Assembly: GCF_037042905.1 (NCBI RefSeq)
Contig: NC_087251.1
Span: 3,474,001 to 3,538,000 of the forward strand
Length of the DNA stretch: 64,000 bases
Direction of reading: 5' to 3'
From: Lytechinus pictus
Lineage: Eukaryota
Below the pieces are notes generated by a model. It saw only the letters and a list, made by a program, of their open reading frames with translations, was not told the origin of the DNA and did no database searches. Of the stretch, positions 14,401 to 39,337 are shown piece after piece. Position numbers and translations under genes: made by a program. Position 1 is the first letter of the stretch. Every line of letters begins with the position of its first letter.

Positions 14401-14740
14401 AAATTCCACTATCACAATCTCGTAAGTAGCATCTGCATTGCCATCATGTTAGTGCATAGGTTGAAAATCTCAGGTTTGGAGAATAAATACTGAAGTAGGG
14501 TGACTTACATAGTAACATACATTATCTGAATGAGAGTTTGATCACATGTACAAAGTCTAAACTAAAGGCTCTTTGATGCCTACTCTGATTTGACCTGCAA
14601 AATCAATAATTCTTCAATCAACTTCAAATCAAGGTTTACATATAATAAGTCATAAAATACATAGGCCCCTACATGGTTTACTTTTAAAATTTAAGTTTTA
14701 ATATTTTTGTCTTACATTATTACAATGGTCGATATCTTAC

Positions 14741-15900
14741 CGGTACCGTGGCGTGGCGTTGATCGTGGCCTGGTTCAGACTTCAGGTTGTACCCTATTAT
14801 TAAGTAAAGGCTATATCACCTCGACTTATGCTCGCTCATCAAAAGAATCTAACGTTAATAATAATATGCCGCTAGCTGGTTGTTTCTGCTTTAGCCTTTA
14901 GGCCTTGATCTTTTTGTTTGCCGCGCCGCACGAGTATCGTACCGTTGTACTTCTCCAGCGCGGCTCGAAGGTAAACGTCGCCAGAGTTTCGGGGCAAATC
15001 TACGGCCGTTATCGTAAGACACTCGTACTTTCAAAAACGGCGAGCGCGCCACTTGATTTGCTGGTTCCGGGTTCAACAAAATTTTGTAAATAATGTAGGT
15101 ACCCCGGTATTATATCACAGAGTTAACTCAGCGAAAATATGGCTTAGTCTTGAAAGCTGTTGCAGTCGTTCTTACTCAAATATAATAAGTCGTAGCAGGC
15201 TTATCCACTTTGAAAAATCATGAGACCGAACAAAAGTTTCGGAAAAAGAGTCTAGACCGGGACAAATAGGTAACCGGACAAATACCGGTATCTCCATTTA
15301 TCGTAATTAACTGCGTTTGTTAACGTCGAGACTCGATCGAGAAGAGGAATTGGAAGCATTATAGAGAATAGTCTGACATGTCTAGACTTAAGTCTGGCTT
15401 AGGCAGCAGTTTTAGGCGTAGGCCTACCTGGCATTTACAGAAAATTTATGTTAAACTTTAACTAGCGTAGATAGAGGTCCCTTCATTCAATGCTAGACTT
15501 TCTAACGGCGGCGTAGCCGTAGCCGTAGGCGTAGCGAGTGCATGTCCGAGTTAGCTTCCGAACGCCAGCCTGAATTCAACTCTGCTCTGCTGCCTGGGCC
15601 TGCGCCTGCACTGGGCTGGGAGTGACACTCAGCAGCGGACACCCCAGACCGTAGACGCCGCCTGCTTCCCGAGGACCTCGGCCTTACGATCACCTGCTGC
15701 ACTGCCGATGCCCTGGCCCTGCCCCTGAATGCATGTCGTTGTTCAACTTGTTGTTGGCGCAGGTCCGGCTCATTGCTTATTTCAGGCTGTATTACTCACT
15801 GTATTGACATTGTACCGGTACCGTATTATTTGTACTGTATGTGTTCCCCGTGCGTGTGGCCGGATTGTGTCTGCCGCTGATCAACAACATTGATTAAGTA
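14741..15900. promoter_or_regulatory. Probable shared (bidirectional) promoter and first non-coding exons of VRK (-) and PPP1R37 (+)
   Basis: CpG/GC-richer unique sequence between two divergent genes. Minus-strand donor ccg|GTAAGA at 14740; candidate plus-strand donors ag|GTAACC (~15270) and aa|GTAAGC (~15898). TSS positions are inferred, not shown. Confidence 0.45.
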
Positions 15901-16788
15901 AGCCAGGGCCAAAGTTCCAACTCCAATCACTGACACAGTGACACTGCCACAAAAAAATCAGCTAAGCCTAAGCTTGACTGGCCGTGTTTCAACTTGTACT
16001 ATTGTAGATACATGTACTAGACTGCCGGAATTCTAGACTTAATAATAATATCACTTAGCACCTTTTCTAACTTAAAAACGTCACTCGTTGTCGTTACTCT
16101 GACTCTCTGTTTTAAATTACTGTTGGCGTTAGGCATGTTCATCATGTCGACAATTGATAATCTTGTTCACTGCTCTAACAAATAACGTTTATACTATAGC
16201 TCAGAATTTAATTAGATTTAGGGAATTCAGTCAGAAAATATTCGCAAGACAGGATCTGAATCTGAGCAAACTAACAAAGCTAATTTTATTTAATTACAGA
16301 AAAGGAAATCAATTTAAGAAAGCCGATTTATGGCAATTGTAAATTATAGACATGTACGTGATGCAAATAGTTAGACTAGATTGGATCTAACTTATTTTGA
16401 CGTAGGGCCCTAGTGAAGTCTTCGGAAATTTTGCTTGCTGACTCACTATTTGTACACTGTATGCTTTGACTCTGACTTCTGAGTGGCTTGCTGAATGTGA
16501 ATGAAAGAGTTTAACCCATCTGCGTCTATGTTACGGAGTACATTAGCTGGTGACACGGTACACAACAACGTCAATACTCCAACAGTCTTGACAGTTGTCT
16601 GCTGAGTCGCTGACTAAGTTTCAGACAATACCAGGTTCATGAAGTTTCAAACACCAATCAATTACAGCTGTAATTAAGGATTCATACCTCTAGAACTATG
16701 TTTGATTGAAATGAAAGGAAATACTTATTTCTAAGATATCAAGCTTTTGAACCAGTGGCCGGTTGCCTGCTGCCAAAAGACTAGTAAA

Positions 16789-17122
16789 ATGGACAGTATT
16801 GTGTCTTCTGAGGAGTTAGCAGGGGGTTCTGATGCACAGACAGTCGTACCACTTCCGTTTAAAGAAGGGAGCAGTGCAGGTAGAGTCACAAGTGAACATC
16901 CTTTATCAGAGACAGAGATGCCTCCTGCAAGAATGGATCATGCAGCAGAGACATGTGACAAGACTGTTAAAGGAGACGCTTGCCAGTCAGATAGGGAAGG
17001 TTTGCAAGATGGTACAACAGTGAGTCCAGCCCCAGGAAAAAAGGGATCAGGACGAAGAGTCCGATTTCCTGAAGGGAGTCTTGTTACAAGCGAGTATGAG
17101 CCACCTAATCCATGGATTAATG
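16789..17122 (+). CDS. PPP1R37: PPP1R37 (LRRC68)-like, coding exon 1
   Basis: ATG in aaaATGg. Contains the PP1-docking RVxF motif RRVRF (17053-17067) followed by EPPNPW (cf. RVTF...EPKDPW in PPP1R37). Donor G|GTGAGA, phase 1. Confidence 0.85.
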
Positions 17123-19312
17123 GTGAGATTTTTTCCTTTTTTTTTAGTCTTGTAACATATGTCATACATCATGTCCTTTCAGGGAATGGAAATGATTTAC
17201 AAATTTAGGTCTATTCTTTTCCTCTAAAATCAAATTTTATTTGGGTTATATTCCCCTGAGAGGTAATCTTCTTCAGTATAGTCTGCTAGTGCTATCTTCA
17301 CAGATTTTTACAGAACACACATGGCAGAGTACTTAATACAGTGGCAAAAAGAAGCTGCTGAAAACTGCTTATCTAAAAAAAGAGCCAATGGAGTAAATTA
17401 GAGAGTCAAAAGGGGCCTAAGCTTTCGATCCTAGCAGAATCTTCGTCGGAGGCAAAATGACTTAATACAGTGGTGGATGTAGCTGTTGCCAACTTATTAT
17501 CATTTGTAGACAAAAGGTTTTCCCTCCTCCCAATGGCCAGCAGAACGTTGGCTATTCCATAAAGGGCAAGCCTACCCCAACATAAAAAATAATCGAGCAT
17601 AAAGCAAATACAAATTATCAAATTCCTAAGTGAAATAAGAAAGTTATGACTGGGACTAGTTATGACGTTCTAAATTTTTGCTTATTTTCACAAACACAGT
17701 TATAAATATGCACAACTTTGATTATAATGCAAATGAGAGAGTGAGAGTCAATGGTGTTAGAACACTATTTCTTTATTTTTATTATTTAAAGATAAACATG
17801 ACAATATGGAAGTCTCACCTTTATTCTTGTATCACAATCTAAGGCAATCCCACATAAGGTCAAGTTCACCCCAGAAATTTGTTGATTTTAATAAATCAGT
17901 AGAGTAAAATCAAACCAGCATAATGCTGCAAATTTCATCAAAATCAGATGTAGAATAAAAAAGTTATGTCATTTTAAATTTTCGCTTATTTTTCACAAAA
18001 CTGTTATATGCACAACTCCATGATATGCAAATGAGAGAGTCTATGATGTCACTCACTATTTCTTTTGTCTTTATTGTTTGAATTATACAATATTTCGATT
18101 TTTACAGATTTGACAATAAGGACCAACTTGACTTTAATTCCATAAAGTGTTAAAATAATGGTAATTCCACATGTTCAGGGAGGGATTCAATTTTGTTTCA
18201 CATGACAGTGAGGAGAAAATTACAATTTTTCATATTTCATATAATAAAATACCAAAGAAATTGTGAGTGAGTGACTACATCAGTCTGCTTATTTGCATGC
18301 CGGCCTTGATGTGCATATATTACTGTTTTGTGATATTAAGCAAAAGTAACCTTATTTTGCATTCGATTTGATGAAATTTTCAGTGATACGCTTGTTGGAT
18401 TTTTCTCCTTTTATTCAGATTAACTGTTTGTTGGGGTGGACTCGTCTTTCAAATGAGGAATCAAACCTTTTTTACCATGATGTTGAGGGAAAAATTAAGA
18501 TATTTCATCTAATAATAAAAAGAAACAGTGAGTGACATCATCAGTTCCCTCATTTGCATACCGACCAGGATGTGATCATGTGCACATACAATGTTACATA
18601 TACATATACATGTATGTACAAATAACTGTCTTTTGAAAATGAGCGAAACTTAAAAATCTAATTTCTTTTTTTTGCACCAGATTTTGATGAAATTTGATTA
18701 TGGATACTGTTTCTAAGAAAGCTAGAAACTAAAATACACATATTTAGAAAATTAAACATATAGGGGAAAATACTCAAAATAGAGAAAAATTTATTGCAGC
18801 TGCGAAAAATTTATTGCAGGGGCGAAATGTATTGTACATTTGTTGCTTTTTATACTCACGCCAAATGAATTTTGAAACTTTGAAGGGTATAAAAGAATCA
18901 GCGGGCAGTCAGTCCATTGCAAATCTTGTGCATTGGACTGCTTCCTCAGTTTATATTAGATAACCAATTCTCATGAAATTTTGGCACAAAAATTGATCTT
19001 GGAGTAAAGATGTGCAAGACATATATTTTGTGTTTGTCGGAAATCATGTTGCCATGGAGCAACATACATGTATTATATGGCGAAAATTATGTAAAAATCT
19101 TGCAGTTTGAATTCCTCAGTTTTCAACCAATTCTCATGGAATCTGGTTCATACATTGGTCTGGAGGTACATGAAAAGATGTGGGGGGCATTTTTTTTGGG
19201 TGTTTGTCAGAAAGTGTGTCACCATGGTAACAGTTTTATTCGCAAAACTAAGGTAAAAATCTTGCAGTTCAAACTAGAACATCAGATTTCAGCCAATTCT
19301 CATAAAATTATG

Positions 19313-19465
19313 AGATAGATCTATAGATAGATAGATACACTGTAGATAGATCTATAGATAGATAGAGAGATAGATAGATAGATAGATAGAGATAGATAGA
19401 TACATGTCTAGATGGATGGATGGATAGATACATGTACATGTAGATAGATACATGTAGCTAGATAA
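19313..19465 (+). repeat. (GATA)n/(GATG)n microsatellite
   Basis: Direct reading of tandem tetramers. Confidence 0.9.
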
Positions 19466-20762
19466 AATTGGTTTGAGGCAAAGATGTTTAAGACATTCTG
19501 TATTTTTCAGTTTTTAGCCAGTGCTCATGAAAGTCTGTATAAATATTCAACTTGGAGTAAAAACATACAAGATTTATTTTTTATTATGTTAATCACCTTC
19601 AGTGAATTCTAGTTTGGAAGTGGAAGTGCTGAACATAACAAAATCACCATTAGAGATAGGCATTGTAACAATTACATTATATTGGATGGCTCAGAATGGA
19701 ATACCATAAATATTTCCAAGAATGTGGGAAAATATTCCACAAATTGCAGATTGGCTCTAACAAGTGGAATATTTCTGGTATTTCATGAAATAAAGCCATC
19801 CAATATCATCTATACAACCCCCCCCCCCCCCAAAAAAAAGAGGGAGAAATTTAACAAGTCATATCACTTATCACATTATGTCATCACTTTAGGATCAATT
19901 TTGGTCAGTGACATGCGACTTACATGTACATGTAGTTCATGATGACGTCATTGTGATCTATGCTGCGCATGGCATTACATTCATTGTTGTACGCGTTGTA
20001 TATTTCATGCATTCGTGCATGCGCACTAGACTGTTGAATATGGTCTCAAACTCAACGGTAAATTTTGTACAGGAGCCTATGGGATATTCGTCGGATTTAA
20101 AGTATGGCTAAAACGCTCTATATAGATAATAATTATACTGAAAAAGGTAACCCCATGTACATGTACATGTAGCATGTAGGTGTATGAATGTGTACTGTAT
20201 AATTTCATCAAGAAGTACAACCCAGCTATGTCTAATGCATTGTATTTTAATTTTTTGGGTTTCATGGTTCAAACTTCAAATACGATTTTTTAAAAATGAA
20301 TTGTGTAGAGAATGATGCATAAAAGACTGCATTCATGAGGTGCTTGATTATCCATTTCTATAAAATGTCCACCTCAGATTAATTAGCCATGTACTTGAAC
20401 CTACATGTTTTTGTGTCTCGCCCACTTATGAAAATAACCAGAAATATCGTGATTTGCGAGGGCACGCAACAGAATTGTATCGAAACTTCATTGTGAACTG
20501 ACTGGGATGGAATAACACTTGTCATAAGAGCCTTGCACGTAAACTTTAATGTTGACCTGAAAATGATCTTTGACCTTACCATGTGACCTCCGACTGCAGC
20601 ATAACATGCAGGTCGCCTAAGTCCATCTACATGTACCATCCAAGTTTGGTTGAAAAGTGACTTACAGTTGCAGAGTTAGGTGTCATAAAAGAGTCTTGCA
20701 TGTAAACTTTAACGTTGACCTGAAAATGACATTTGACCTCACCATGTGACCTCTGACTGCAG

Positions 20763-21840
20763 CAGAGAAAAAAATACTTTTTTTTTTTTGCAGGAGCCAT
20801 TTTTCTAACTGGTCACAAATTTATGGGAGCCGTTTTTCAATTTCCGAGAGCAATTTTTGAATTTGCTAGAGCCATTAAAAAAAAAATAAATCACATTTTA
20901 CACATGTTGAATCTGAAGTATTGTTTGTTGTGTTTTAACTTGCCATCCGTACTATTTCTTTAACCAACAAAAGTAAAGATTGCCATAATGCCATTTGTTT
21001 AATGTGCCATCTGTACTATTTCTTTTACTATTAAAAGTGTCTAGTCTACATCTATACTAATTATAGTACAGTCCCAATTAACAGGGAAATTGTTCCTCAT
21101 ATTCCTACCTGAACTTATGTGTTCGTCTAGCTGACAGTTTTTTACTCATGGTTCATTATTTTTTCACAGAATTGTTCAAGCAAACAATTCAGAAATCACG
21201 AAGCAACTCCGAGAAATATCCGGTGACCGATGCGATGTGCAACTCAAATGCATTCGCCTATGCAGCTACGCACATGCACGCGGTGTCTATTTCACTACAT
21301 GTATCGCTATACGTGGGCCTACACAAACAACGAGGGTAAACAAAAAAGGACCCGAGTTCGGACTGACATTGTGATTAAAATAAAAATAGCAATGCAATTC
21401 CAGGACTATGAAAATGAATATCGATATTCGAATAACGGAAAAATATCCACTGGTAATTCATCGAAACTTTTGCAAAGATTAGACAGGGTTCTTACCAACA
21501 GTAATTACTTTGGGACTAAGGATAAATGGCGTTCGAGCTAAAGCTGGTTCGCAGCAGCAGCAGCAGCGCGCCCAGTCCCGAACTGCCAATATGGCGCCGT
21601 ACATGAAGCTGACGTTAGAGTACGGCGATTGCATTATATTGCACATAGCGCAATACAACACGCGCGGTTCTTATCCACCTCTATGTACGCTGCACAAGGG
21701 AAGACAGCGGACCTACGAGCCAGTTTTTTTCAAGGAGCGATTTTTTTTCCCCTGATCGCTCTCTCTAATGGGTTTGCGAGCACGATTTCAAAGCTTACGG
21801 GAGCGATATCACTCAGCGCCCCCTTGTATTTTTTTCGCTG
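20763..21840. mobile_element. Non-autonomous hAT-type element
   Basis: TIR CAG(A/C)GAAAAAAATAC; 8-bp TSD GACTGCAG. Confidence 0.88.
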
Positions 21841-22127
21841 GACTGCAGCATAACATGCAGGTCCCCCAAGTCCATCTACCATCCAAGTTTGGTTGAAAAG
21901 TGACTTACGGTTGCGGAGTTAGGTGTCATAAGAGAGTCTTGCATGTGAACTTTAACGTTGACCTGAAAATTACCTTTGACCTTACCATGTGACCTCCGAC
22001 TGCAGCATAAGATGCAGATCCCCCAAGTCCATCTACCATTCAAGTTTGGTTGAAAAGCGACTTACGGTTGTGGAGTTACACATGTATGTGTCATAAGGTT
22101 TGTGACGGACGACATTTGGATCCCTAA

Positions 22128-22543
22128 AGGCGACCGCACACCTTACGACTGGTCTCCGACCCGATTTTAGAATAAATTGTTGTAGAATTTGATGCTAATA
22201 TTGAGACTTGGAATATCTTACTGTGTAATGTTCTAAATCATCGTACGAATACCTATGATCAAATTTGTGACTATGCTATCATCCTTCTTAGAATAAAAGC
22301 GAATTTAATATCTAGTCGTAATGACGTCATAGCAGTCGTACGATTAGCTACGATTTGAAACTAATTGGGACTTTACTCCGAAATAAGGGCTTGCAATCTT
22401 TCAAAATTGTTATAATATTATTATTTCAATTAATTTCAACCTCAAATAAAATGATATGTTCCATTCACATCTTCAGAAAATGAGCAAAATGCGATTTGTT
22501 CCAAAATCGGGTCGCAGACCAGTCGTAAGGTGTGCGGTCGCCT
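22128..22543. mobile_element. PIF/Harbinger-type MITE
   Basis: ~41-bp TIR AGGCGACCGCACACCTTACGACTGGTCT(C/G)CGACCCGATTTT; 3-bp TSD TAA. Confidence 0.88.
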
Positions 22544-24314
22544 TAAGTCTCGCATTCACCTCTGGTGGGCGAGACAAAAATGAATCATGACTACAATACA
22601 TTATACATGTACATGTAGGCCTATAATTGCCGGATTATAATACTCGAGATGAAGTTTTGGTCTTCCATGTTGCATTAAAATTACATTGTGATAATCAAAG
22701 ACCCCTTTGGCATGGGAATGGTGTGAGAGATAGCCAGAAGCATGTCTTATTATATAGTGACCAAATTTACATGTTCAAGCAGTTACCTGATACGAAGTGA
22801 CAGATCAAGTGAAGTAACCACCTTAGCCCTAATGGGTTTGACAGAGTGGATCATATATCAACCACTGTATACTTAGCTGTCAGTAACTGAGTAATATCAT
22901 CATTTGTATCCCACACCTTGAATGTTTGTTATATTTTCTATTTTTTCAAACCCAGAATTTACATGTACTCATTACAAATTTCTTCTGAAAGATAGAAAAC
23001 GGCATAGTTGTATACATATGTGTAGATGATTGCACTGCACATGGTGTACATTTGCATGTAGACTCTTATAGGGGTCATGTAGTTCATATATTTTGAAAAT
23101 GTACATTTATGGCATTATGTACACCCTGACAATGTAAATTAATAATGTATGCATTTCCCATGTACATGATGTACATGTAGGCCTACATCATGAAATGAAT
23201 AACTTTGTTTGTGATTTTGTTTTTCCTTTAAAATTCATACATGTGCATGTATGCCTCTATGGTTTCCAGTTCTAATTATGAACTTGAATATGTATAGTTC
23301 CAATTGCAGTATAAGCCTATCCTTCAATTGATTGCATTATTAGCACTGTGTATTACTGTATCCTGCCAATGTTACTTCATTTCTGCCCTACATGTATATA
23401 GGCTAATGGCCATCTAGATTAACCCCACATGCATGGACACAGGCGTGTATCATTTCTCATCACATCACAAAGAACATACATTTTAACAAAATATCAACTT
23501 TCAATTTTGTAATGAATGACAACCACCAACTTTTAAAACATTGAGATTGTGGAAGGAATGCAGTTTCAGCAACATGCATTTGGCTTATCTAGGCTTGTAG
23601 TGTAGGCTGATTCTGCATTTTAGTTCAAACAGGTGGAAAGTAATAAACATAAAGTAAAAAAAAGAATGATCATGAGGAATTAGAGACCTACTCCATCGCC
23701 AATAAGACTAAAATCAATTGCAACCCCATGTATGTACATTAGGCATTCATAACAGCTACCTATGCACATGTACCTGCATCACCACTTGTTCAACAAAGTC
23801 CTTTTTAAGTCCATAGTGCTGATTACCACATTTGTATAATTATTTTTTTAGGGCAAGAAGTTTATCTGAAATAGAAAATGGTTGTGTCCATGACTCCATG
23901 TCTACATGATGAGTCAGTTTAATTGTCTATGAATACATGTACATGTACATGTAGGTATTGGAATTGCTATTGATATTTTTTTTTTGACAAATGAAATTTT
24001 CTTTAATAAAAGAATAATAACACATACAATGGTGTTGCAATATGGAAAGGCAGCAGGCCAATGAAGAATGAACAAACTCAAGATAAACCATTATTTAAGT
24101 GGACACCATGAGTCATCCCCTCCTGAATCAAGACAAATTTCAAGGGGAGTAGCAGGTCTATCAACTACATGTGTTTGTATGTACTGCATATATATCCATA
24201 TTATGAATGTAGATCTTCAATCTTCATTATCTTTTGTGAATTTCCCTTGGGTATATTATTGTGATGGAGGATCATTATCAGAAATGATCAAAGTTGTAAT
24301 GTTTACCAGTCTTC

Positions 24315-25280
24315 TTTTATTAATATGCCCGTCCTAGAGTGTTTGACTTAACCTCGGCTCATATAATTTGGTGTGTATGATACTAGCATGGATCCCAGGA
24401 AGCCTATTGATTTTGAGGTCTAAAGGTCAAAGGTCAAGGTCACAGTGACATGTTTTCATCTTACCCTTCTGCAGTCCTTGTAAACATGATAACTTCAGTT
24501 TAATGTAACCTAGGCTCATATAATTTGTTGTGTATGATACAAGCATGTATCCCAGGAAGCCTATTGATTTTGAGGTCAAAAGGTCAAACGTCAAGGTCAC
24601 AGTGACATGTTTTCATCTTACCCTTCTGCAGTCCTTGTAAACATGAACTTCAGTACCTACATGTAGGCTCATATAATTTGTTTTGTATGATCCCAGGAAG
24701 CCTATTGATTTTGAGGTCAAAAGGTCATAGGTCAAGGTCACAGTGACATATTTTCGTCTTGCCCTTCTGCAGTCCTTGTAAATGCGATAGCTTCAGTTTA
24801 ACTTAACCTAGGCTCATACAATTTGGTATGTATGATATTAGCATGGATCCCAGGAAGCCTATTGATTTTGAGGTCAAAAGGTCAAGATCACAGTGACATG
24901 TTTTCATCTTACCTTTCTGAAGTCCTTGTTAACACAATAACTTTAGTTGAACTTAACCTAGGCTCATATAATTTGGTGTGTATGATACTAGCATGGATCC
25001 CAGGAAGCCTATTGATTTTGAGGTCAAAAGGTCAAGATCACAGTGACATGTTTTCACCTTACCCTGCTGCAGTCCTTGTTAACACAATAACTTTAGTTGA
25101 ACTTAACCTAGGCTCATATAATTTGGTGTGTATGATACTAGCATAGATCTCAACAATTCTATTGATTTTGAGGTTAGAAGGTCAAAGGTGAAGTCGCCAC
25201 CTTCCACTTGCTTGACCAATAGCTCCATTTTCCATGTTACAGGCGGGCGTATTATGTGCTGGCCATAGTGACACTCTTGT
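24315..25280 (-). mobile_element. Helentron-type element with ~5.5 tandem ~150-bp units
   Basis: Units anchored by (t)aggctcatataatttg at ~24354, 24510, 24664, 24808, 24959, 25109; subterminal IR aatatgcccgtc / ggcgggcgtatt; ends cttgt in a T-run. Confidence 0.75.
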
Positions 25281-28200
25281 TGCTTTTGTTTTGGGATTGT
25301 GGCTTCAGGAAATAATCATATTACAGTCATGTACTCATGAGGTTTTGTATTGAATGTAAATCTACCTTTATGTGTATGGTGATATACAGAGCTGCACTGC
25401 CAGAGAAATGGCTAGATGATTTTGAAAGGACTAGGTGTTATGTTTAGTATTGGGTACAGGCCTCAAATGTAAATTTTTTTATGCAGGGAACTTTCAAAGC
25501 CCTGTTTTCTTAATAGAGCTATCATATTTGCTTTTATAAATATCAATACATCTATGACATCATTGACTACAATGTACCAGGAATGCTTGGCAAAAGTAAG
25601 TGAGAAAAATCCCAGTCTCATAAAATTGGGGCTCTTTCACAGATTTAAAGGGCAAGTTCACCTGATATATTTTAAAAACAGAAAATGAAAGGAAGCATGA
25701 TTTCAGAAATTTCATTAAGATTTTCAGATGATAAGTGTTTCAGTTTTTTTATTCTGTGGCGTCACATGTGAGCAGCTCCCTTATACAATGTACAGTACAT
25801 ATACATCATTATCATCATCATATGGAAGTTAGGTATTCCTGACATAGCACTTTTGGTCGATTAGTATGTATACAGTTAAATTCGTTTTAAAAAATGAAAA
25901 AAAAAAATGATCTTACATACCTGTGCTTTTATCAGACATATCATTGGAAACTTTGCTTGTGACCTACATGTACATGTAGCTCATTTATTTGTAAGAAAAA
26001 AAAATATTGTCTTGAATTATGAAAAGGGAAATGTATAGAATTTATACTGTACATGGGGGAAGATGCTCTATCACATGTGACATCACAATCTTGAGTATTA
26101 AAACTTAATCAAAAAAATATCATGTCCATCTTATCTTTTGATGGGTTGACACCAAAGGTTCATTGTAATTTTGTATTTAATTTTTTTTAAATATAACCAT
26201 TTTGATGTCTGGGAGGTTCCTTACTATTTGAAGGATTGTACTTTCATTTTAGTATGCTTCTGCATCCCCCAGGGCTATAATGTTTCAGCCTTTTTTTTTA
26301 ATATGAAGGTGAAACTGAGCCGTACAAATTTGTCCCCAGCTGGTCTTTTGTATATAGAGCTTTTACTCTCACTTGACCTGGTGCATAGAGGGTTGTGATT
26401 AGGTGTATTGTATGTTGATGTGGAAGATTTCCCAAGGTATGTAGCTCAATTTGATGCCCCTATCAGCTTTTTTTTTAATCACTTAAAAGCTGTACAGTAT
26501 GTATGCAATCACCTGATCCCATTTACATGTATTAACATATAGCCAGCCAACCAGTCCGCTGGCACTGTACTCTATCATGATTTTTTGGAGGATTAATGGT
26601 TTGATGTACATATACTGTAGGTTCCAATACATGTAGGCTACATGTATGTACCTAGGTGACTTGCATGCCTCAATACAGTCTGGTAAAGCTATAGCACACC
26701 TGTAATTGGGGAATGATGGAACTATCTTGTTATGAAGTCCATCAGCTGTGACATCCCTGTGTTTTTTTTAATTTTGTGTGTGTAACCTTTCCATCTGAGT
26801 GACCATGTCATACTTACATACATGTATAACATAATTTTTCATTGATACATTTATATAGTGGTGATTACCGGTAAACACAATGTCAGGATGATCGAACTTT
26901 TTCTTTTGGTTCACATTTCTTTTGATTACACTGTACATGTAAAGAATATTGTTTATCATGCATGTTATTGAAAAAAAGTACATTATTTATGTGCATGTAA
27001 TGTATATATTTGCCCATTAATGAGAAACAGAAATACTATGTTTTCTGTTGTATCATGCATAGGTGTGGTATTGCCTTTTTTGCCAGTACATTTTCTGCTA
27101 AAAAGCAGGGATTTGATGGAATGTGTATAGCATTGTTGCTGATTGTTGACTCACATACTGTATGTTGATATCCCTTGCCTGTGTAGGAAGCTCATGACAT
27201 GTACAAACATGTACTGTATGTAGTATCAAGGGTCCATATTGCAGGTGAGGTTCACTGCTGTGAAGTGATTATATTAAAATGGGAAATTGTAATCTGTGCC
27301 AGTAAATGTACCATGTATACTGATTGATTATGATTGTAATTGTTCTGTACGTTATTTGATGGTTGGTTTACCTGACTGCCATTTTTAAAAACAAACTTGA
27401 ATGTATACAGATAGCCTACGCTACATTTATGTGACCTCAGGCCAGAATCATGATTTGAATCTTGATTAAAAAAACAAACATGAATCACAATACCACAGAA
27501 TCAGCATTTACACAACCTTCATTCCAATGCTGTTTCTCCTCGGATTCGGGCCAATCCAGTGCGCATCACTAGTGCGCAGTTTGACAGAGGAAGCAAGTAT
27601 AGGGCAACTTTTACGCACATGTTTCGGCTCAAGAAAAATCAACAGTTTGCTTCCAGAATTCAGTCTATTATACATCGGTCTACCTCATTTTGTACTCTAA
27701 ATGTACTTCTATTCATCTTGTCGGTTTATTGAAAATGGTGTTCGAAAGTGAATTTCAGCATAGATCCAATTTGATATGGACACTGTTAACTCAACAACAA
27801 CTGAGATCATTGTCTGTCCAGTTTAATAATATTTCATTTACTAGAACTTGAATTTGAAGACATGACCAAAAGAATGAAAAGCAGTAGACGATGCAATGAC
27901 CAACACAGAACATGAATATGACAAGAAATGCATGCATATCACACACTGAGCATAGCGCGTGCCTTGAGCTGGCAAGAATCAAACTGAAAGTAGCCCGACA
28001 CAGTGACATCATAGAATCATGATTCAAATCACGATTGCGTTTATACGACCTTTTTCCGTGTGTCATGTTTGTGATTTGAGAGGCGTTTATTTTCACTTTT
28101 GACTCAATGCAATCGTGATTTGAATCATGATCCTAATCATGATTCTAGGATAAAAAGGTGGCGCATTAATGCACCCTAATATAAATGAAATGAAGCAACC

Positions 28201-29332
28201 AACTAGACCAATGGATATACATGTAGATCCTATTTGAAAGACCTTGGAAGCATTTCTTCACTTCAGTATCAGATACTGTGACAAGCTACTGAACTCCTTG
28301 TCTCTTATTGGCTATCAACAAAATCATGAAGAAGCTCCAGGAGGTGCTTCCCTGTTCATAGTGTATTCTTTACCAAAAGACAAGAATGGATCCCAATTGT
28401 TTTCATGTAATTAATGAACCTTCATTTTGGAGTCATACATGTAGGCATTGCATTTACAAGTTGGACACCATGCTTGTACACAAAAGCATTGAAGGGTTGT
28501 TTTTCATTGCTAGGAGATGTAGGCATATGCATGTACATTAAAAAATGGTATCAAAATGCTCGGATAAAAGGGTACAGTACATACTTTTCAACCCTGGATA
28601 TATCAAAATGGTATACATGTACAATGTAGGCCTAAACCATGTCAATTTTAGAATATTTGAGGCAATATTTACAGTGGGATAAACATGAAAAAATATTTGT
28701 TTAGGGTATTCAATAAACCTCTCTGAGTAGGACTCTGAGGTAGAAGGATGATTATTTGTTTATAAGGTGTACATGTACATTAATTCCCCCCAAAACATAC
28801 AAAAAATCAGGGGAAAAAAATAAGATTCCCTTTACATGGGTTATTTTTCCTTATGTTGTGAATTCTGCAGGCGTTATTTCCTTATGTTCTAAATTACCTG
28901 GGGCCCGTAACACAAAGCTTACAATTCATCGTAGAAGATTGACTACAATGTGCAATTAATCGTGAAAATCAAGCATAAAATTAATTGCTAACCCGTGCGT
29001 TATGTGACCCTGTATGTAATTGCGAACATAAAACCTGCAAAATAAATTTTATATTTGCCTGCTTTTTGTATGTTTGGGGGTAATTGTTTGGAAAGGGACT
29101 CGTTACTTGTATTTAAATGCAATTGATATCAAGATCATTTGCAAAATATGTAGGCATATATTTTTGACCTATTATGTAGTAATAATTGTTTTTGGTAAAT
29201 ATCCTGTTTCATTTTCAATTTTCAAATTTTGTCTTTTTCTCCCTTTTTCACTTTTCTTTTTTTCCTTTTTCTACCTGCCATAATCTGTATTTCCCTCTCT
29301 CTTTGATTTTCCTCTTGAATGATTCTATACAG

Positions 29333-29430
29333 CCAAGGAAACATGCACTGATGAGCTTTGTGCCGCTTACCAAGCTGGATGTGCACAGATGAAAGTCAAA
29401 CCAAGTCAGAGTATCATTCGACAACTCCAG
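29333..29430 (+). CDS. PPP1R37: PPP1R37 coding exon 2 ((A)KETCTDELCAAYQAGCAQMKVKPSQSIIRQLQ)
   Basis: tatacag| ... CAG|GTAAAA; phase 1 to 0; matches the family segment DEVIGAYKQACQKL...LLRQLQ. Confidence 0.88.
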
Positions 29431-29453
29431 GTAAAAAAAATCATCTAACTTCT

Positions 29454-30762
29454 CAGCGAAAAAAATACACGAGGGCGGCGGGCGAATTTGCCCCGGAAAT
29501 GCCTAAAGTCGCCCTCGAAATCACCCAAAATCATGCTTTTGGGGGCGACATAAAATCTTAATGTCGCCCCCGAAATTATTGCCGAGCAATACAACTCAGC
29601 AGCCCACGAGCGCCATATGCTCGAGCTCCGCTTACCATTTAAAAATCATCAAAAATCCGCACTCAAAATCATGAACAAGCCTTGAAAATAGCGAGGAGCA
29701 CAGTTTGAAATCCCGAAGTTGGGTCTTTTTTTCTGTACCACGTTTTTCCATACACATGGTATGAAAAAAATATCAACGCAACAGTCAGGAAACGGTTGCA
29801 TGTATAGGGGTCCATTATGACTACCACCATGTGCAATTTCTAATGCACATTTTCCCCTACAGATATCACAATTCTGTGATAAAATAATTCGAATTACACA
29901 GGAAATAAATCCCAGAGTCTAGTAACCTCGCATTGGTGAGTTGTCATTCGGCTTTGCTTTTCAAAACGGCCTATTAACATCTTAAACTTACCTTATTTGT
30001 TGATTATTACTTAAAAATCATTTGTTTTATTTTTCTAGGGGATGAGGTAAATATCAGACAATAAATCATCAAACAAAGCTCCATCTATTTTACAAGGCCA
30101 CGGGAGGCTCACGAACACCCGCATTGGCGCTTGTACTAGCTAGCCAGTCTGAGCTCTGTCTCTCTGCCAGAGCTCTGGGGGACAATTCGATCAGTAAAGG
30201 CCTCAATGATGGTGATTTTCTGTTTCAGACAGAGTCTACATTTCGGGTATATTATTAAAATCTGCCAATAAAGTTTGATGATTTCTTCATTGTCATGTAT
30301 ATTTAAGTTATTAATGAGTTCATTCTCACCAAATTTAGACTCCCCCATAGAGAAATGCAATTTTCGTTGAGATCTGCGTTTTCAAAGAACTTAAGGAAAA
30401 GTTAGGGTATGTGGGCCTTTTATTATAACATGGACAAGTACAGGTTATTGTACTGGAATAGATGGAGTAGAAATTAGATATTGAATTCATGTATATCAAA
30501 ATTCAACTCACAGTCACACACACACACCCACATCCAAGATTCTAAGCATGAAAAAAATAACTTAAAAAATCATACAATATTAAACGATAAGTAATAATTC
30601 ATGAATAAGTGAACAGGTATTCCTCAAAATACAAAAAAGTAGCATTTGAAAAGAGCCCCCAAAATGCAAAAAGTAGCCCCCGAAAGGTAGAAATGGAGCC
30701 CCCGAAATTTTACAAAAAATTGAAAAAAGAGCCCCCGAAAAAAATGATTATTTTTTACACTG
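29454..30762. mobile_element. Non-autonomous hAT-type element
   Basis: Imperfect TIR CAGCGAAAAAAA / CAGTGTAAAAAA; 8-bp TSD TAACTTCT; left end similar to the right end (reverse) of 4076-5147. Confidence 0.82.
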
Positions 30763-32183
30763 TAACTTCTCCTTGTTATTACAGTCACGTAATGAGGATC
30801 ATTCATATGGAACCACCCTGTAGACGCGCAAGTACAGGCTTTATTGTTCTCACACAGGCAACCTGCAAAAATTGTTGAGACCCTCGCGATTCGCAAAAAA
30901 CTCCGTACACGAAAATAACAGCTTATACAGTGCAGTAGTGAGAACTTGTTGTTGTGAATGATTAGATTTTACCAAACTAAAAGATAGCTGTATCTTTGAA
31001 GGGTGTTGTTATAGTTATAATCCACTGTAATATAATGCTTATCACAGAACAATGTCTCAAAGCACTTTTACAGTTCAGTGCTTGTGAGCTTTATTCAAAG
31101 CCAGTATTATTTTTGTTAATGTTAAATATTAAAATTATTCATTTTCAAAGTTTTGAATTCATGGTAAGATAAAATGGAAAAAAATCATGTAACATATGTT
31201 TCATGAAAAGATGCAATCTAAATTCCCTGAGATTTACAATTAATTTACCAAAAAATAATAAACTTACATATTTTTTGTATATTTCAAAGGGGCACATAAA
31301 TGATTACTAATACTAACAAAATCTACCCTTCATTGTTGCATTTTGGTAAAGTCTGTCAACCTATAGTATATGTCATGGAGATTTTGATAACTCTATGCTT
31401 AGAAGGTATTCTGTATTAATAATATCCTGCAAATATTTGCATTACATTATGTAGGTCCACACACCCCAGAGGAGCAGTACCAATGATGATGGTATTACCC
31501 TCTCACTATGCACCTGAGAGTTTGTGGTGGAAATATTTGCATGCAAAATATATTAAAGCACTATTCATTACCAGTACTTATAAACATTGATATAAATTAC
31601 ACGTCAAGTGTTTAGTAACCATAACCTGTTTGAAATTGGATACTTAGTCGGCGATGAAATAGTTTTTCAATATTGAAGTCAAATCACCTACCATTTGTCC
31701 CACAATGAAAAGTAATATGAAAATTTGAATAAGATCCTATTGTAGTTGGGTCAAATGTTAAGAACAAACCTGTCTCAGAATATATTCAGTACACACAATA
31801 GACATTTTATTGGTGAAATGTGCCATTACAAAAAACTGTTAACCTAATTGAACTTTGTGGGGTATGTCTTATTATCTTCAGTAATTACACTGGGAATCAC
31901 ATTTTTCTTTTTTATGGGGGGGGGCAAAGAAGTACAAAAATAAGGCCATTTCTTTTTCAAATTTTCAATACAACTTTTTTTTATGCACAATTATTCAATT
32001 TTATATATAAATTAAATATTTGTTTTGAGGCCAAAAGACAAGAGAATGATCGATTGGAAACAAGGCAATATGGATGGATTGAATATCAGATTGTCCAATA
32101 CTGGTACATGTGGTAATGCTATCACAGAACACATCAAGAAGATGCAATCTTTAATCATATGCCTTTCTCCTCTCTTCCTAAAG

Positions 32184-32229
32184 ACGGTGAAGGATTTCAC
32201 AGTTCGAGCAGAAAGTCTCAATCTTCAAG
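32184..32229 (+). CDS. PPP1R37: PPP1R37 coding exon 3 (TVKDFTVRAESLNLQG)
   Basis: Pyrimidine tract + aag| ... G|GTAATT; 46 nt, phase 0 to 1; aligns with RLDCLDLKG. Confidence 0.82.
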
Positions 32230-33829
32230 GTAATTCTTTTTGCCATTCAATACATGTATCTATATTGATTGCTCATATGAAGCCATACTTTTGGGATAAC
32301 ACACTTGGTTTAGGGTCATGCATGATGCTGCATGAAGCCTTTCTTATTGCCTAAGGGTCATATTTCTAGCAAGCCAGTCTAACCAACTCTCTCTTTCATA
32401 CATTTGGTTTAGTCGATCGATATTGGATGAATAAGGTACTGTTGCTGTTTGCAATCTATTAAAAATAATATTTTGATGCAAATTAACATTTAACTTGATT
32501 GATTGATTTGTTTACTTATAACATCATGATTGTGATAAATTATGAGGACATCATACTAAACTTAACCCACCAGGACGAATACATCCCCCCCCAAAAAAAA
32601 ATAAAGCAAAATAAAATACTTCCTTGATGATCAAGATAAACAGAAGTTAGTGATCCATTTATGTCATTGATTTATTTGAACTTTATTATTCAAAACTTAG
32701 TACATATATTTCAGAAAAAAAATAAATTTGTTGCAAAATGTGCTTGAAAGTTAGAAATTTGTCCATTTATATTGAAAAGTAATTATATTGTTTCCATCAC
32801 ACTGTCAAGTTTGATGATCCTTCTCCTTTAACATGAAAAGGTACATAAAAATTAATCAGACTCGGCATCTACATAAAAAAAAACTTTATTCTGTTTGATT
32901 TTTTTGTATTTTTGTATGATTTCTAGAGCCTTGCTTTAAACATCATTTTGTCACAGATCAATTAAAACAAACTATATCAAATCAAATCAGATACAGTATG
33001 TATAGGGATGATGATGATAATGCATCTGTGTTTTCTACTAGTTCTATATCACATTCATAGAAATGTTTGGTTTTCATTTATGATTGCTTTAAGAATATAT
33101 GATAAGTGACCTTAAAACCATAATTAATCCAAAGTTTTATAATCAATGAAGTTTATATACATGTACATGAATTTAAAGCTTACTTTTCTGAGACATCTCT
33201 TTCCACAAGTTCTTTCAGGTACAAATTATATACATCTGAATGAGTTCAATTTTTATAATTAGATGAAATACCAATGTCCTTTGCTGGAAGCAATTTGGAA
33301 AATACAGTGTATAGAAGGTTTTTTTTTGTGTTGGCAAATTTGTGATTTATCTTTGAATATTCTGAGTTTGTGAAAATTATGACTCAGTTCTTTAATTTGA
33401 AATATCTAAACTTGAATTATATTCCTATGAGTATCCGTGTATAATTGAAATAAACCAAACAATGTATTAATCCAACCTGGTAATATTTAAATCATAAAAA
33501 AAATCAAATTATTTATGCTCTAGTAAATGTGTGTTTTAATCGTCAGTAAAGAGAATGCATGTTGTAAATGACATAAAGTTGAAAAGTAGGCATAGTAAAG
33601 TAACATGCACTCTTATTATTTAGTGGAAAGAGAATGCAATACCTGCTTTGATAGAATTGTGATTTCATTTCATCATGGTTTTTTATTTTAACATTTTTTA
33701 TCAGAATTGCCCTTTTAAAGATTAAAAAAATAATAGTCTTATTGAACATACTTTTTTATATCAAAAGTACTCTGTAGTTAATAAAGCGTCATATCCTCTA
33801 CATTATTGTCACAAACTTTATATTTAAAG

Positions 33830-33930
33830 GTGAAAAGCTAGATCTAAAAGCTGTGGAGACCTTAGAGGAGGTATTCAAAAGGGTTCAGTTCAACACTATA
33901 GATGTGGAAGGCACATCGATGGATGATGAG
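33830..33930 (+). CDS. PPP1R37: PPP1R37 coding exon 4 (GEKLDLKAVETLEEVFKRVQFNTIDVEGTSMDDE)
   Basis: aag| ... GAG|GTATGA; phase 1 to 0; close match to GEKLDYKTCEALEEVFKRLQF. Confidence 0.92.
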
Positions 33931-35001
33931 GTATGAATATATGGTTCTTGTGAAGAAATACAGATGAAAGTATAATTTGATGAGCTTTTGGAATGATTGA
34001 TCATCTTGGGCATTGAAGGAAAGATATCTATCCTGATAATAATTGCAGATAGCCTCTGACGTGTACAGGGGGATCAAAACAGGGATGTGGGACACAAGCT
34101 TAGTTCTCGTCTCTATTGAGATCCAGTTAAGATTTAATTCTATGTGCATATTTTAATGAAGAATAGAAAAACATTGGTAAAGAAAATCTTTAGGTTGAAG
34201 AAATATTTTTACGTGGTGGCTTAATTCTTAATCCTGGTTCATACCTTTTGAGTTTTGAGCTGTGTATCGCTGCCTGCGGAAAAAGCAATGTGCAACTTAA
34301 TGCAGCATACTATGCAACAAAATATTTGGTTGCAATCACACTTTTGCGTACGAGCTTGTCGGGGCTCATACAGAGTTGCACGCAGTAAAGCAAGGTGATG
34401 CAGGCTGAAGTGAGGTAATTCAAGGTAAATCAAGCACTTACGCTGCATTAATCCTTGTGTAAGCTACTCGCTGTCGCTCATTCTTGTGCGTCTTTGCTCA
34501 TAGAAATTTTGGTTGCATTCAGTTGTGGGTGTTTGAAAAATTTTCAAACATCCAAGCTAGGCCTCTGTGTTAGTCTGTGCATTGACATTGTATCATCTTG
34601 TTTCATTCGGTGGTATTGCATTTGACTGCATTTTTCTGCATTCAGGCAATCTGCAGCTGAATACAAGGTGTGACCGAGTCTTTAGTATCATTTTGTTTAT
34701 AAAAATATATAATATACTTTAATGTTTTCATTGATTCATCTAAGTTTTATAAAGCAATGTACCTATTTTTTCCATTTTTGAGTATTTGAATGTTGAATTC
34801 ATGTAATTATATACCGTATTTTTAAATCACATTTCTTTATCAAAAAGCATGGTAATTTTGTCTACTTGTTGCATTTCTTTTATGACAAGGTAATGTTTTT
34901 ATTCTCTTGAAAGAAATATATGATTAAGAATCTCACATGTGTAGTACATGATATCCCTTCATCTTCTTGCCTGTTTTGTCCCTTTCTCCTATATGATTAA
35001 G

Positions 35002-35121
35002 GCTACCATGGCAATGTGTGACATGATAGAGTTTTATCAGTCTACATGTAAGCTCATCTATGCAAGTAATAGATCTATTGGGTTCAGAGGTTGGCAAGCA
35101 GCCTCAAGGCTTCTTAGAAGG
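35002..35121 (+). CDS. PPP1R37: PPP1R37 coding exon 5 (ATMAMCDMIEFYQSTCKLIYASNRSIGFRGWQAASRLLRR)
   Basis: aag| ... AGG|GTAAGT; phase 0; DMIE(F/Y)Y and IGxRGWQAA family motifs. Confidence 0.92.
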
Positions 35122-36410
35122 GTAAGTAATCCTCGGTTTATTGTAAAATTATGATGAAAAATAGTAAAAAACAGTAGTGACTATTTTTCTTTCTTTATAG
35201 TTACTATATTTTTGTTTATTCTCATTTCCATAAAGAAAAATAAGGGAAATATATGTGGGTAAAGTTTGTATTTCCAAATATTTTTCAATTATATGAGGGT
35301 GAATATGGGATATTAAGAGAGATCTGGAAGCACTTCTGTGTTCATGGAACCGAAGATGGCATAGGCTATATCGAATTGAGTTGATTGTTTTTATTGTTTT
35401 CATCTTTAATTTGAGTACATTGATCAACACCATTATAATATGTCATAAATTTACTTGCCCTTGCTGCCTACTTATTTTTATTCCATATTTTAGTAATAAC
35501 TTTTTTTTTTGGAACAAACAACTTTCAAAATTTATCTTTAAGCATCGATTTGACAGAATATAGAATTTAGAAGCTCATTCAAGAAGTATGGATTTGCAAA
35601 TTGTATAAGTATCTCAAATTTGAATCCCCCAAGGCCGAGTGATGTTCTTTTTTTTTTCTCTGATTAGCAATTTTAAAACAAATTTATGTCGAAAGCCTAC
35701 TTTTATGATAAAAATGTTTTCATATAAAGCATCATTCTGCCAGTAATATTTTATTACAAATACAGAAAAATATTTTAGTCAGCATTTTGATGAATTTATG
35801 AATTTTGCATTTTTTAATCTTTGATCATTGGTGTCCAAACTGTTATCAACCTGTTATGAAATATGTAACAAGCATACAAGTGCCGCCCGATCATTTCTGT
35901 AAACAAATCCTTAAATATAAATGTTTAGTTTTCCATCTATCCATAGTGAAGATATAGATAACTATCTGTTATCATATGGTTTTATTAATGTCTTGCCGAT
36001 GCACATAATTTAGCATCCTCATTCCATTTCACCTCATGTTTATCTCACCCACTCACTTAGAGCAACTGTGTGGTAATCATTGTGGGATCTGGTTTAGAGA
36101 CACCACATGAATTTAAAAGGTTCTTTACCCCCTTTCATTATATGATTATATCACACAAAGATATTTTCTATTCTGCGAAATATTTTTCAGTACTACCGTA
36201 TGCTCCTGTCAGTATTGCAGACTGCATTTTATTGATAGTACAATAGAACAATAAACATAATCATTTCACATGAATAATTCACCATGATATCTTATTTTTT
36301 ACTGAATATATGATGAGTATTTATGTCCCTGTTGTACCATACAAACTACTGTACCCTGTGTAGCAAGTGGAAATCAAAATGAACAAAAAAAATTCAACAC
36401 CCTCACTTAA

Positions 36411-36993
36411 AGGAGAATGAAACCCTTGAAACTAGCTGAATCCATATTAAAGAGAAAAATCAAAGAAACATATTGTTGAAAGTTTGAGGAAGATTGAATG
36501 AATAATAAGAAAGTTATGAGCATTTGAATATTGAGATCACTAGTGCCATGTAGATCCTCCCATCGGCAATGCGACCAAGATCTGTGATATCACACACGTA
36601 CAACTCCCTCATTACTTTAGTACTTATTTCACTTATATTCTCACTTTTATAGAGTCTATCACAAGGTTAGGTGTTTTCTTTATGAGATGACAAGTACAGA
36701 GGTTTCACAACATTATATCATTGATGAATCGTTTGTCATATGATTAGAATGAGCAAAAAGAGATGTTTTGGGGTATATTTTCAGTGTCCGAATGGGAGAG
36801 TTGTACGTGTGTGACATCACAGATCTTGGTCGCATTGCCAATGGGAGGATCTCCATAGCATTAGTGATCTCGACATTCAAATGCTCATAACTCTTTTATT
36901 GCTAGTCCTATTTTACTCAAAGTTTTGTTGATCTTATTCTTTGATTTTTCTGCTTTCACAAAAGCTAACTTGCTCCAAGAGTTTCATTCTCCT
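36411..36993. mobile_element. Kolobok-like TTAA MITE, copy 1
   Basis: TTAA|AGGAGAATGAAAC...GTTTCATTCTCCT|TTAA; nearly identical to 61251-61847. Confidence 0.9.
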
Positions 36994-37049
36994 TTAATAT
37001 CTTCTTTGCATGTTGTCTATGATTGTCCTTTTACATGTTGTTGTTTTAG

Positions 37050-37200
37050 ACACCCTGTCTGCACACGTTTGATGCCAGAAACACCTGTTGGACAGAACAT
37101 AGTATGCCTGCAATGTCAAGGGCTATGAGAGTTGATTCTTCCATCACAGCACTGCACCTAGAGGCTTGTAACCTTTCTGGCAGACCACACTTTCTACTCA
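37050..37200 (+). CDS. PPP1R37: PPP1R37 coding exon 6 (TPCLHTFDARNT...LHLEACNLSGRPHFLL)
   Basis: ttttag| ... A|GTAAAT; phase 0 to 1; DARNT and LSGRP motifs. Confidence 0.92.
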
Positions 37201-38047
37201 GTAAATATACATACAAGTCTACTTTATATTTCACATTAAAGGGGTAAACCATCATGAGATTAAGTTGTTCTAAACATACATGATAGTATGATTATTTAAG
37301 TAAAATGGTGAAAAATTTAAAGCTTTGCTCTATTTGCCAAAACAGTGATATGCAAGAGAGTGTCCTATATATAAAAATTATATCCTAATTTTTTTTTGTA
37401 TTTCATTTCTTTTTTATTTGACATAGTCATTTTTTTTTATTGATTTACATGAATGATGTCTCCATTGTATGGAAAAAAATTAAGGGTAATTTGAAACATT
37501 TTGTAAGGAATCTATCCAAGTCTGGGAGAAGAAAATTATTATTTTTTATTTAATATTATAGACTATAAATATTACAAACATTGATTTGGCCAGAGCGATG
37601 TCGTTTTTGTAAACAGTGCAAAGTTTAGTAGCTGTATCTTTGTATTATTATTCACTTTATTTTAGATTTTATTTGATTTGTTTTTATTTGACTATTTTAA
37701 ATCACAACACTTTTCCTATTACTCTTTCATTCATGTTATAAAGATTATATTGTAATATGTCTCTTGTTTGACATTGATGGCTTGCCAATAGAAAAATTGA
37801 CACTGTAATTTGCAACAATGTATTCACCATTGTGAATGATTTACTCTTTGGTTAAAACAAGCCTGTCAAACTATTCTGTTCTTACAAACTTCTGTTATCT
37901 ATTCGCTTTGAAACTAATGACACACTTTGTTGTTGTTTATCATTGAACTCATCAATAGATTGACTAATTCATGTATTGATCAAAATGCTAATGGCTTTAT
38001 TTATTTAAGTCTATTTATATCAAATGTGTGTATATGTTTCATTTCAG

Positions 38048-38193
38048 TGTCAGCTTTACGTACAAACTCAACCCTGAGGGAGATATTCCTCGCAGACAAT
38101 CGTTTGATGCCCTCTGATGCAATCCATATTGGTGGAATGTTACGACACAACTCTGGTCTCAAACTCCTTGATCTTAGAAATAACAATATACAG
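38048..38193 (+). CDS. PPP1R37: PPP1R37 coding exon 7 (LRRs: LREIFLADNRL...LKLLDLRNNNIQ)
   Basis: atttcag| ... CAG|GTAGAG; phase 1 to 0; RNI-type LRRs. Confidence 0.92.
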
Positions 38194-38896: not shown

Positions 38897-39019
38897 GATA
38901 CAGGTCTATCCCACATAAGCAATGGTCTATCAGCTCAGTCTAAGGGAGGTCTCTCAACTCTTGTTCTCTGGAATAATCACATCACTCATAATGGTGTAGC
39001 TCACCTTGGTAAAGCATTG
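38897..39019 (+). CDS. PPP1R37: PPP1R37 coding exon 8 (DTGLSHISNGLSAQSKGGLSTLVLWNNHITHNGVAHLGKAL)
   Basis: atatag| ... TTG|GTAAGA; phase 0; GLxTLVLWNN motif. Confidence 0.92.
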
Positions 39020-39337
39020 GTAAGAATTTATACTACATTTAAAACTTTTTTTTTTCATATCAAATAGGCACCTGAAGAGCCTTTCATAAAGCAGTTAGTA
39101 AATGATTTTTCTGAAAACTATTTGAAATCTTTGCATCTTATTGGCTGAGAGCAGAGAGGTAAAATCACTTGCAAGATGCTTTTTGAAATACTCCTTTGAA
39201 GTCAAGGATAAAAAAATATGAAAGTTATTGTGCTTGTGCCAATCAAATGCATTGTCTAAACTATTCTTTATATACCCCTCCAACTGGGTAGGGTTGAAAA
39301 GGACGTGATCCATATTTTAATAATCTATGTTCGGAAT

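Follow-up and report, generated by a model that had tools for sequence, protein, structure and literature searches.

Accumulation of the palindrome TACATGTA in the first coding intron of a sea urchin PPP1R37 gene and its possible origin from transposon excision

The 64,000-base stretch of Lytechinus pictus DNA analysed here (contig NC_087251.1, positions 3,474,001 to 3,538,000 of the forward strand; in the following the window, numbered from its first base) contains the housekeeping gene PPP1R37, the first coding intron of which is densely occupied by the palindromic octamer TACATGTA. We consider it probable, with a rough probability of 0.65, that these copies are accumulated excision footprints, or scars, of TA-targeting elements of the Tc1/mariner superfamily with CA...TG ends. 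An earlier note, made from the letters of the window alone, had put this reading forward, and it is supported by a clean gain of six bases at a TA, by added letters which are not templated, by flanks that lean towards the Tc1 target and by a transposon remnant with a TA/CAG end, whereas no filled allele was found within the window.

Abundance and position of the sites

A total of 40 copies of TACATGTA was counted in the window against an expectation of 2.57 (P = 2e-33, with scars collapsed in the null), and even under an order-4 model the expectation is just 7.4. Once poly-A, poly-T and poly-G words are set aside, TACATGTA ranks top among the octamers of the window. The excess over background is thereby confirmed as a genuine feature of this DNA, although the number of roughly 30 sites estimated in the earlier note was too low. 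Between 16,000 and 33,200, 34 copies face 1.66 expected by an order-2 Markov model. They form 27 blocks (21 single, five double, one triple) and amount to about 2.5% of the 1,387 TAs of this region. The last copy is located at 50,655 and none follows, which agrees with the previous statement that there are almost none after 51 kb. One-mismatch relatives of the octamer are also in excess in the region (37, against 18-24 in a regional null and 13.5 in the rest of the window), which indicates that decayed scars exist and that accumulation has been long.

An exon search identified the gene as PPP1R37, with Lytechinus pictus as top named match (100% over the queried exon), and its 12 coding exons were mapped with two full-length homologs (Table 1). 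Within the gene the gradient is steep: the first coding intron (12.2 kb, 1,013 TAs) contains 31 copies and introns 4-11 (1,045 TAs) contain one (Fisher p = 5e-7). No copy occurs in intron 2, but 1.3 of its 2.75 kb are composed of one inserted element. The copy at 35043 is part of the coding sequence (Ser-Thr-Cys-Lys in exon 5) and matches by chance. According to the earlier note, the scars might also record germline-accessible chromatin. Within the CpG island at 14.5-16.0 kb there is no TACATGTA, and the peak is found 2.5-13 kb downstream in largely CpG-depleted DNA, with 13 copies between 23 and 27 kb at a CpG observed/expected ratio of 0.07-0.25. Since the island is empty and the later introns, which are CpG-poor too, hold one site, the field reflects neither the promoter itself nor simply a methylated gene body. 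Two readings of the excess in intron 1, which one gene cannot separate, are that insertions favour the 5' portion of genes expressed in the germline and that the excess marks a local hot patch. High-copy repeats showed no significant deficit of TACATGTA (one block in 115 TAs against 15 in 403, p = 0.21).

Clustering in a first intron would likewise be expected if TACATGTA were a selected transcription-factor site (of Irx type in animals, of Myb type in Phytophthora) gathered in a regulatory first intron, and in Phytophthora the octamer is the top promoter motif (PMC3520976) and is bound by PsMyb37 (PMC11134190). We regard this explanation as very unlikely, because the sites arise as length gains in single repeat copies, none is located in the CpG island, their spacing is irregular and one site differs in another sequencing run. 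Moreover, binding could have come after the origin of the sites and would leave that origin unexplained.

Still less credible is an origin via substitution, by CpG decay of TACACGTA, TACGTGTA or TACGCGTA in a methylated gene body, or an ancestral octamer with deletions in the siblings. The densest part of the field is indeed CpG-depleted and TACGTA is absent from the region, from which we conclude that decay probably feeds TACATA/TATGTA. However, the precursor words are not enriched, occurring just twice in the window and not at all in the CpG island; the equally CpG-poor later introns hold one site; no substitution yields a gain of six bases; and two of the three sibling units at 20628 lack the six bases. 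CpG decay was rejected as origin.

Length gains, stacks and flanking bases

The clearest indication of an insertion comes from the repeat unit at 20628, in which TACATGTA faces a clean six-base gap at a TA in both sibling units (21871 and 22028), as the earlier note had described. A looser extra length was observed at five older sites: the TACATGTA copy at 11107 exceeds its sibling in the window by six bases, the copy at 11375 is also longer than its sibling repeat, the one at 19065 exceeds its sibling by eight bases, the mirror copies at 49308/50648, which represent one event, are five bases longer in the TACATGTA form, and site 18607 is part of a longer extra stretch (Table 1). These alignments are old and ambiguous, and other gap placements fit them. 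The second control named previously, at 24658, does carry the site, but the clean gain ascribed to it did not hold and the case is ambiguous. Repeat copies with which insertions could be polarised found no match in viral contigs and none in metagenome contigs.

Exactly six blocks are stacked, at the six positions that had been named before and nowhere else in the window (Table 1). The doubling is peculiar to this octamer, as six of the 27 blocks are stacked compared to one of 103 other TA-N4-TA words (p = 3e-4), and stacks are commoner than independent hits would give (p = 0.002). In addition, another scar-like word adjoins seven of the 27 blocks, whereas the figure for plain TAs is 67 of 1,360; the list of such words was picked after the region had been viewed, which makes the p value for this comparison optimistic. 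The claim that scars are hit again is supported by the stacking rate. Alternatively, the single sites could be footprints and the stacks a product of replication slippage of the hexamer. A two-base terminal repeat makes a unit capable of slippage, to which palindromes may be more prone than other words. Words with an equal terminal repeat doubled far more rarely, however, and slippage cannot make the adjoining different words, so that for the stacks we consider it possible but improbable. The proposed seeding of a microsatellite is a forecast, because the arrays reach only three units. A query with (TACATG)3TA returned three loci in viral contigs, which was uninformative. One contig of the viral collection (L003, 27% GC) contains a degenerate TACATG-rich array near 2940-3080, which has the look of a longer expansion of the unit.

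The inner letters are independent of the flanks: CA or TG adjoins six of the 27 blocks, compared to 20% of plain TAs. As constant letters without a template in their surroundings, they derive, we conclude, from outside the locus, and local template switching was rejected as their origin. The flanks themselves lean in part towards the Tc1 target consensus CAYATATRTG (PMC9635669). Scored against this Caenorhabditis elegans consensus, the 27 blocks reach 3.41 compared to 2.78 (p = 0.008), and the effect persists in the 15 half-sites without a nearby TA (p = 0.004). Of the 54 half-sites, 28 have T at position +3, compared to 34% (p = 0.006); in the series of 32 tests of flank composition to which this belongs, just the two biases at +1 pass the Bonferroni threshold. 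The CATG half-site of a scar fits three of the four positions of the Tc1 target half-site, which offers a simple reason for repeated hits.

The postulated pathway would begin with the insertion of an element at a TA, which is thereby duplicated, as established for the superfamily. Excision would then leave each flank with a two-base CA overhang (an established step for Tc1, presumed here), and end joining which retains both overhangs would yield TA-CA-TG-TA with a gain of six bases, a product documented for Tc1 and matched here at 20628. Long filled alleles would be lost by selection or re-excision, while the near-neutral six-base scar could drift up. Finally, the two TAs and the CATG half-site of a scar may become targets anew, from which (TACATG)nTA and mixed stacks would result; their excess is observed, and its cause is presumed. 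At steady state, insertions per TA would occur at about 8 x 0.025 = 0.2 times the rate of substitution per base. This is large for a two-step route of insertion and excision, but it could be reached if long alleles were removed and the scars had no effect on fitness.

Candidate donors, related words and comparison with other runs

The inner letters of the octamer match the end of a TA-targeting element within the window, as the broken element at 5220-5759 terminates with TA/CAG (Table 1). Its minus-strand transposase pieces are frameshifted and end at WPPRSP, before the third acidic residue. Homolog searches led from a transposase piece via P0036 to 1,138 longer relatives; among the 120 listed, 112 were scorable and 95 of these have the DD41D spacing, with 41 residues from the second to the third acidic residue. 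Alignment of the listed relatives covers 5168-5591 of the window, in two reading frames, with E values down to 1e-20. In one of 25 metagenome loci (L004) the terminus aligns with the remnant from TA/CAG inward and the outer flanks differ; the other end is cut off in this locus, and the window holds one end only. A Pfam search of three frames of the remnant found no family and that of P0036 two weak, unrelated matches, so the remnant is identified by its homologs. We take its family to be Visitor/rosa of the Tc1/mariner superfamily. Judging from these sequence comparisons, a TA-flanked, CA-starting family of this superfamily has been in the genome, and the remnant is a candidate donor class, which speaks for presence and not for causation.

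The CAG...CTG element at 29454-30762 was rejected as donor: its 8-base target duplication TAACTTCT marks it as hAT-like and not TA-specific. It is non-autonomous and fills half of intron 2, and a related stretch is found at 5029-5142. Close to it, at 30780-30822, 39 bases between two TAs start with CAG and end with CACCCTG and are possibly a tiny remnant; the ending presumably resembles one end of a rosa/maT element.

Besides TACATGTA (40 against 2.6 expected), three further words among the 16 of the form TA-XY-X'Y'-TA are enriched in the window, namely TACCGGTA (6 against 0.28), TAGATCTA (8 against 0.92; two lie in coding sequence or at the edge of an exon, and two in the AGAT array) and TAGGCCTA (6 against 0.44). 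The longer-overhang (3+2) forms TACAGTGTA and TACACTGTA occur three times against 0.3 expected, after removal of the hAT-like element's end, which contributes one of the four TACACTGTA words, and the +5 form TAC(A/T)GTA ten times against 4-4.7. TACATA/TATGTA was rejected as a +4 footprint, since its count does not exceed the regional expectation and TACGTA can turn into it by CpG decay. All six TAGGCCTA words (15419, 22616, 23178, 28627, 54966 and 60671) are preceded by G, three of them with CATG or AATG before. Three TACCGGTA words are located in the CpG island (14738, 15283 and 15813), two of which continue as TACCGGTACCGT; TACCGGTA in the island and TACATGTA downstream seem to occupy different zones.

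The additional words stem either from several element families or from a more general TA-directed process, which is the main rival. In such a process, a transposase, perhaps a domesticated one, would begin an integration that is aborted or immediately undone, or a break at a TA would be mended with a small fixed palindrome. Either would produce the same gain of six bases without a lasting transposon or a heritable filled allele, and it could also make TACCGGTA, TAGGCCTA and TAGATCTA. The uniform product, the high flux and the lack of a filled allele in the window fit with this possibility, as does the enrichment of four of 16 words with a donor class for one only. We nevertheless judge it rather unlikely: simple repair by hairpin formation or template switching is ruled out by the lack of a flank template for the letters, which moreover agree with the ends of a family that occurs in the window. 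To our knowledge, no host enzyme adds a fixed CATG.

For comparison with other sequencing runs, contigs of four runs were aligned to 22500-29000, a region dominated by high-copy repeats in which only distance arithmetic is usable for the sites; 12 of 307 indel rows, 40 of 552 substitution rows and 15 of 454 joints were listed. The share of words in common with the window is just 0.05-0.10 for runs X1-X9. The source of run X4, organism A, was treated as a related species because non-repeat pieces of two aligned runs differ by about 2-6%. A contig of run X10, which may be the source sample, matches 28027-28969 with no substitution and no gap and spans four TACATGTA sites; where this could be checked, at these four sites, TACATGTA is no assembly artefact. 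A second X10 contig over 22591-24383 (1.8 kb, eight sites) has 24 gap letters (net +22) but no substitution, so that it differs from the window by indels only. Across 22577-22645 the X4 contig shows no net change in length, so the stack at 22604 is probably common to organism A. Somewhere in 23293-23412, the X4 contig is 15 bases shorter, which is the length expected if the compound site at 23389 were a plain TA. The aligned parts of the X4 and X3 contigs end exactly at the first TA of sites 23934 and 28436, respectively, and one X4 joint places TACATGTA within another copy of the 150-base family.

Several observations weigh against an origin from excised Tc1/mariner elements. The listed inverted-repeat pairs of the window include no filled TA/CA...TG/TA element, compared to 27 scar blocks, and TACCGGTA, TAGATCTA and TAGGCCTA are enriched without a TA-flanked element with such ends in the window. 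The required flux is large, with 34 hits on 1,387 TAs. None of the 12 listed indel rows (of 307) is located at a TACATGTA site, all being in repeats, and at 22960 run X3 has six substituted letters instead of a six-base gap. The unit at 24658 is net two bases shorter than its four siblings and carries substitutions (MAFFT). The +4 form TACATA/TATGTA, with 30 copies against 24-27, is not above the regional null. The strongest flank bias, at +1, is off the Tc1 consensus (A in 4 of 54 half-sites against 30%, G in 18 of 54 against 15%); its significance is lost when the 15 clean half-sites are taken alone. Footprints of Tc1 are varied, this one being one of 26 products at a known insertion (PMC4490562), whereas here the product is uniform and stacked, affects about 2.5% of the regional TAs and has no prior insertion in sight. 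Tc1 of C. elegans is, moreover, slightly under-represented in active chromatin (PMC9635669).

Further repeats are scattered over the window. A 2.8-kb fold-back element at 48567-51387 has arms that are about 86% alike and subunits of about 390 bases, and its two TACATGTA are mirror copies. The minus strand of 9310-13694 carries a broken long interspersed nuclear element (LINE) with reverse-transcriptase pieces (Pfam RVT_1), interrupted at about 10461-12166 by a TTAA-flanked element with two TACATGTA. TTAA-flanked hairpin elements of about 600 bases, 94% identical, are located at 36407-37000 and 61247-61854, with a similar one at 40473-41114; we assume from their features that they are Kolobok-like. 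A short fragment at 42322-42576 in intron 10 resembles by eye the 3' end of a LINE open reading frame (no Pfam family was matched), and three near-identical 65-base tandem copies at 52027-52221 adjoin a small hairpin repeat.

Table 1. Coordinates of the gene, the TACATGTA sites and related features in the window.
Feature	Position	Strand	Remarks
PPP1R37 coding span, 12 exons	16789..48331	+	from homologs; exact borders from sequence
PPP1R37 exons 1-6	~16789-17123, 29332-29431, 32186-32230, 33830-33931, 35005-35122, 37050-37199	+	
PPP1R37 exons 7-12	~38047-38193, 38897-39022, 40058-40200, 41429-41599, 43103-44068, 48260-48331	+	
CpG-rich stretch, putative promoter	14500..16000	.	0 TACATGTA, 3 TACCGGTA, 1 TAGGCCTA
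Single TACATGTA in putative intron of the 5' untranslated region	16009..16016	.	GT donor ~15898 and AG acceptor ~16735 seen in sequence
Dense TACATGTA field, first coding intron of PPP1R37	18607..28777	.	31 copies, 24 blocks, ~3 per kb
Two single TACATGTA in intron 3 of PPP1R37 (32251, 33158)	32251..33165	.	
Stack (TACATG)2TA	19429..19442	.	at end of AGAT array; extra single site 19449
Stack (TACATG)2TA	19921..19934	.	
Stack (TACATG)2TA	20158..20171	.	
Stack (TACATG)2TA, then TAGGCCTA on shared TA	22604..22623	.	
Stack (TACATG)3TA	23934..23953	.	
Stack (TACATG)2TA	25965..25978	.	
Compound site TACATGTA-TA-TAGGCTA	23389..23405	.	
Clean control, +6 bases at TA	20628..20635	.	alignment with sibling units 21871 and 22028
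Weaker control in 150-base tandem unit	24658..24665	.	+6 only with adjoining 8-base deletion
~45 extra TACA/TGTA-rich bases including site 18607, in one repeat copy	18565..18620	.	missing from five sibling copies
Broken Tc1/mariner-superfamily (DD41D-type) element	5220..5759	-	terminus TA/CAGTGCG... at 5759; candidate donor class

Significance and relation to known systems

Cut-and-paste activity is usually judged from surviving copies, as excision normally leaves no readable record. If the TACATGTA copies are footprints, scars and filled sites stand here at 27 blocks to none, and excision rate, target preference and the fidelity of germline end joining would become measurable from population genomes. 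Models of non-coding evolution would gain a new mutational signature, and it would become explicable how palindromic factor sites and hexamer repeats originate within first introns. It would also call for caution in motif finding, as a top "binding site" can be a scar. Beyond this gene, we regard it as conceivable, though less likely than not, that sea urchins as a lineage bear a major mutational signature in the TA-directed insertion of six bases. In genes expressed in the germline, its rate per TA in the 5' introns would be roughly one fifth of the substitution rate per base, and it would be self-reinforcing through its scars and come in the flavours CATG, CCGG, GGCC and GATC, each of which would record an element family. 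If this were true, past transposition and germline chromatin could be traced from scars even in places without any surviving element, and the factor sites of Phytophthora would be scars adopted by factors later.

In Phytophthora, TACATGTA (motif-1, M93, AM-20) and TACCGGTA (M94) are abundant promoter motifs (PMC3520976, PMC3597505, PMC11134190). The same two palindromes are thus jointly over-represented there, in thousands of copies, and here. The words of Phytophthora are read as transcription-factor sites with a Myb binder, whereas those described here are intronic and gain length at a TA. A Tc1 footprint was considered for Phytophthora and dismissed, with reference to the preference of Irx (PMC3520976). 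Our literature search, which mostly did not extend to subscription papers and supplements, found no report of such a TACATGTA field in an animal genome; all five whole-word matches were oomycete or fungal by title.

Excision of Tc1/mariner elements leaves overhangs of two to three bases, and the footprint consists of element ends between TAs (PMC3878927, PMC6943129). The canonical footprint of Sleeping Beauty is TACAGTA/TACTGTA (PMC6943129, PMC3878927). It is like TACATGTA in that letters of the element ends remain between duplicated TAs; it differs in being a +5 form with three letters from one end, in place of a +6 form with two letters from each end. The Sleeping Beauty-like +5 form reaches about twice its expectation in the window, where some of the words may be element ends. 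The DD41D-type element in L004 shares the TA/CAG terminus with the remnant at 5220-5759, most relatives of which have the corresponding spacing; the remnant itself is frameshifted and single-ended.

The closest counterpart is Tc1 in the germline of C. elegans, where TACATGTA accounts for 24 of 103 frame-restoring excision alleles of unc-22(st192), compared to 25 of 103 with a precise TA and 26 kinds overall (PMC4490562). It was found in 10 of 36 such alleles in lig-4 and in three of 39 in polq-1, again counting frame-restoring ones only (PMC4490562). The product TA-CA-TG-TA is the same as here and arises there from two-base non-complementary overhangs. To these known cases the window adds the steep gradient between introns together with an empty CpG island, the controls for slippage and templating, the flank score and the remnant of a donor class. 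The TACATGTA scar as such is real Tc1 biology, and its dominance in this sea urchin gene exceeds that in C. elegans.

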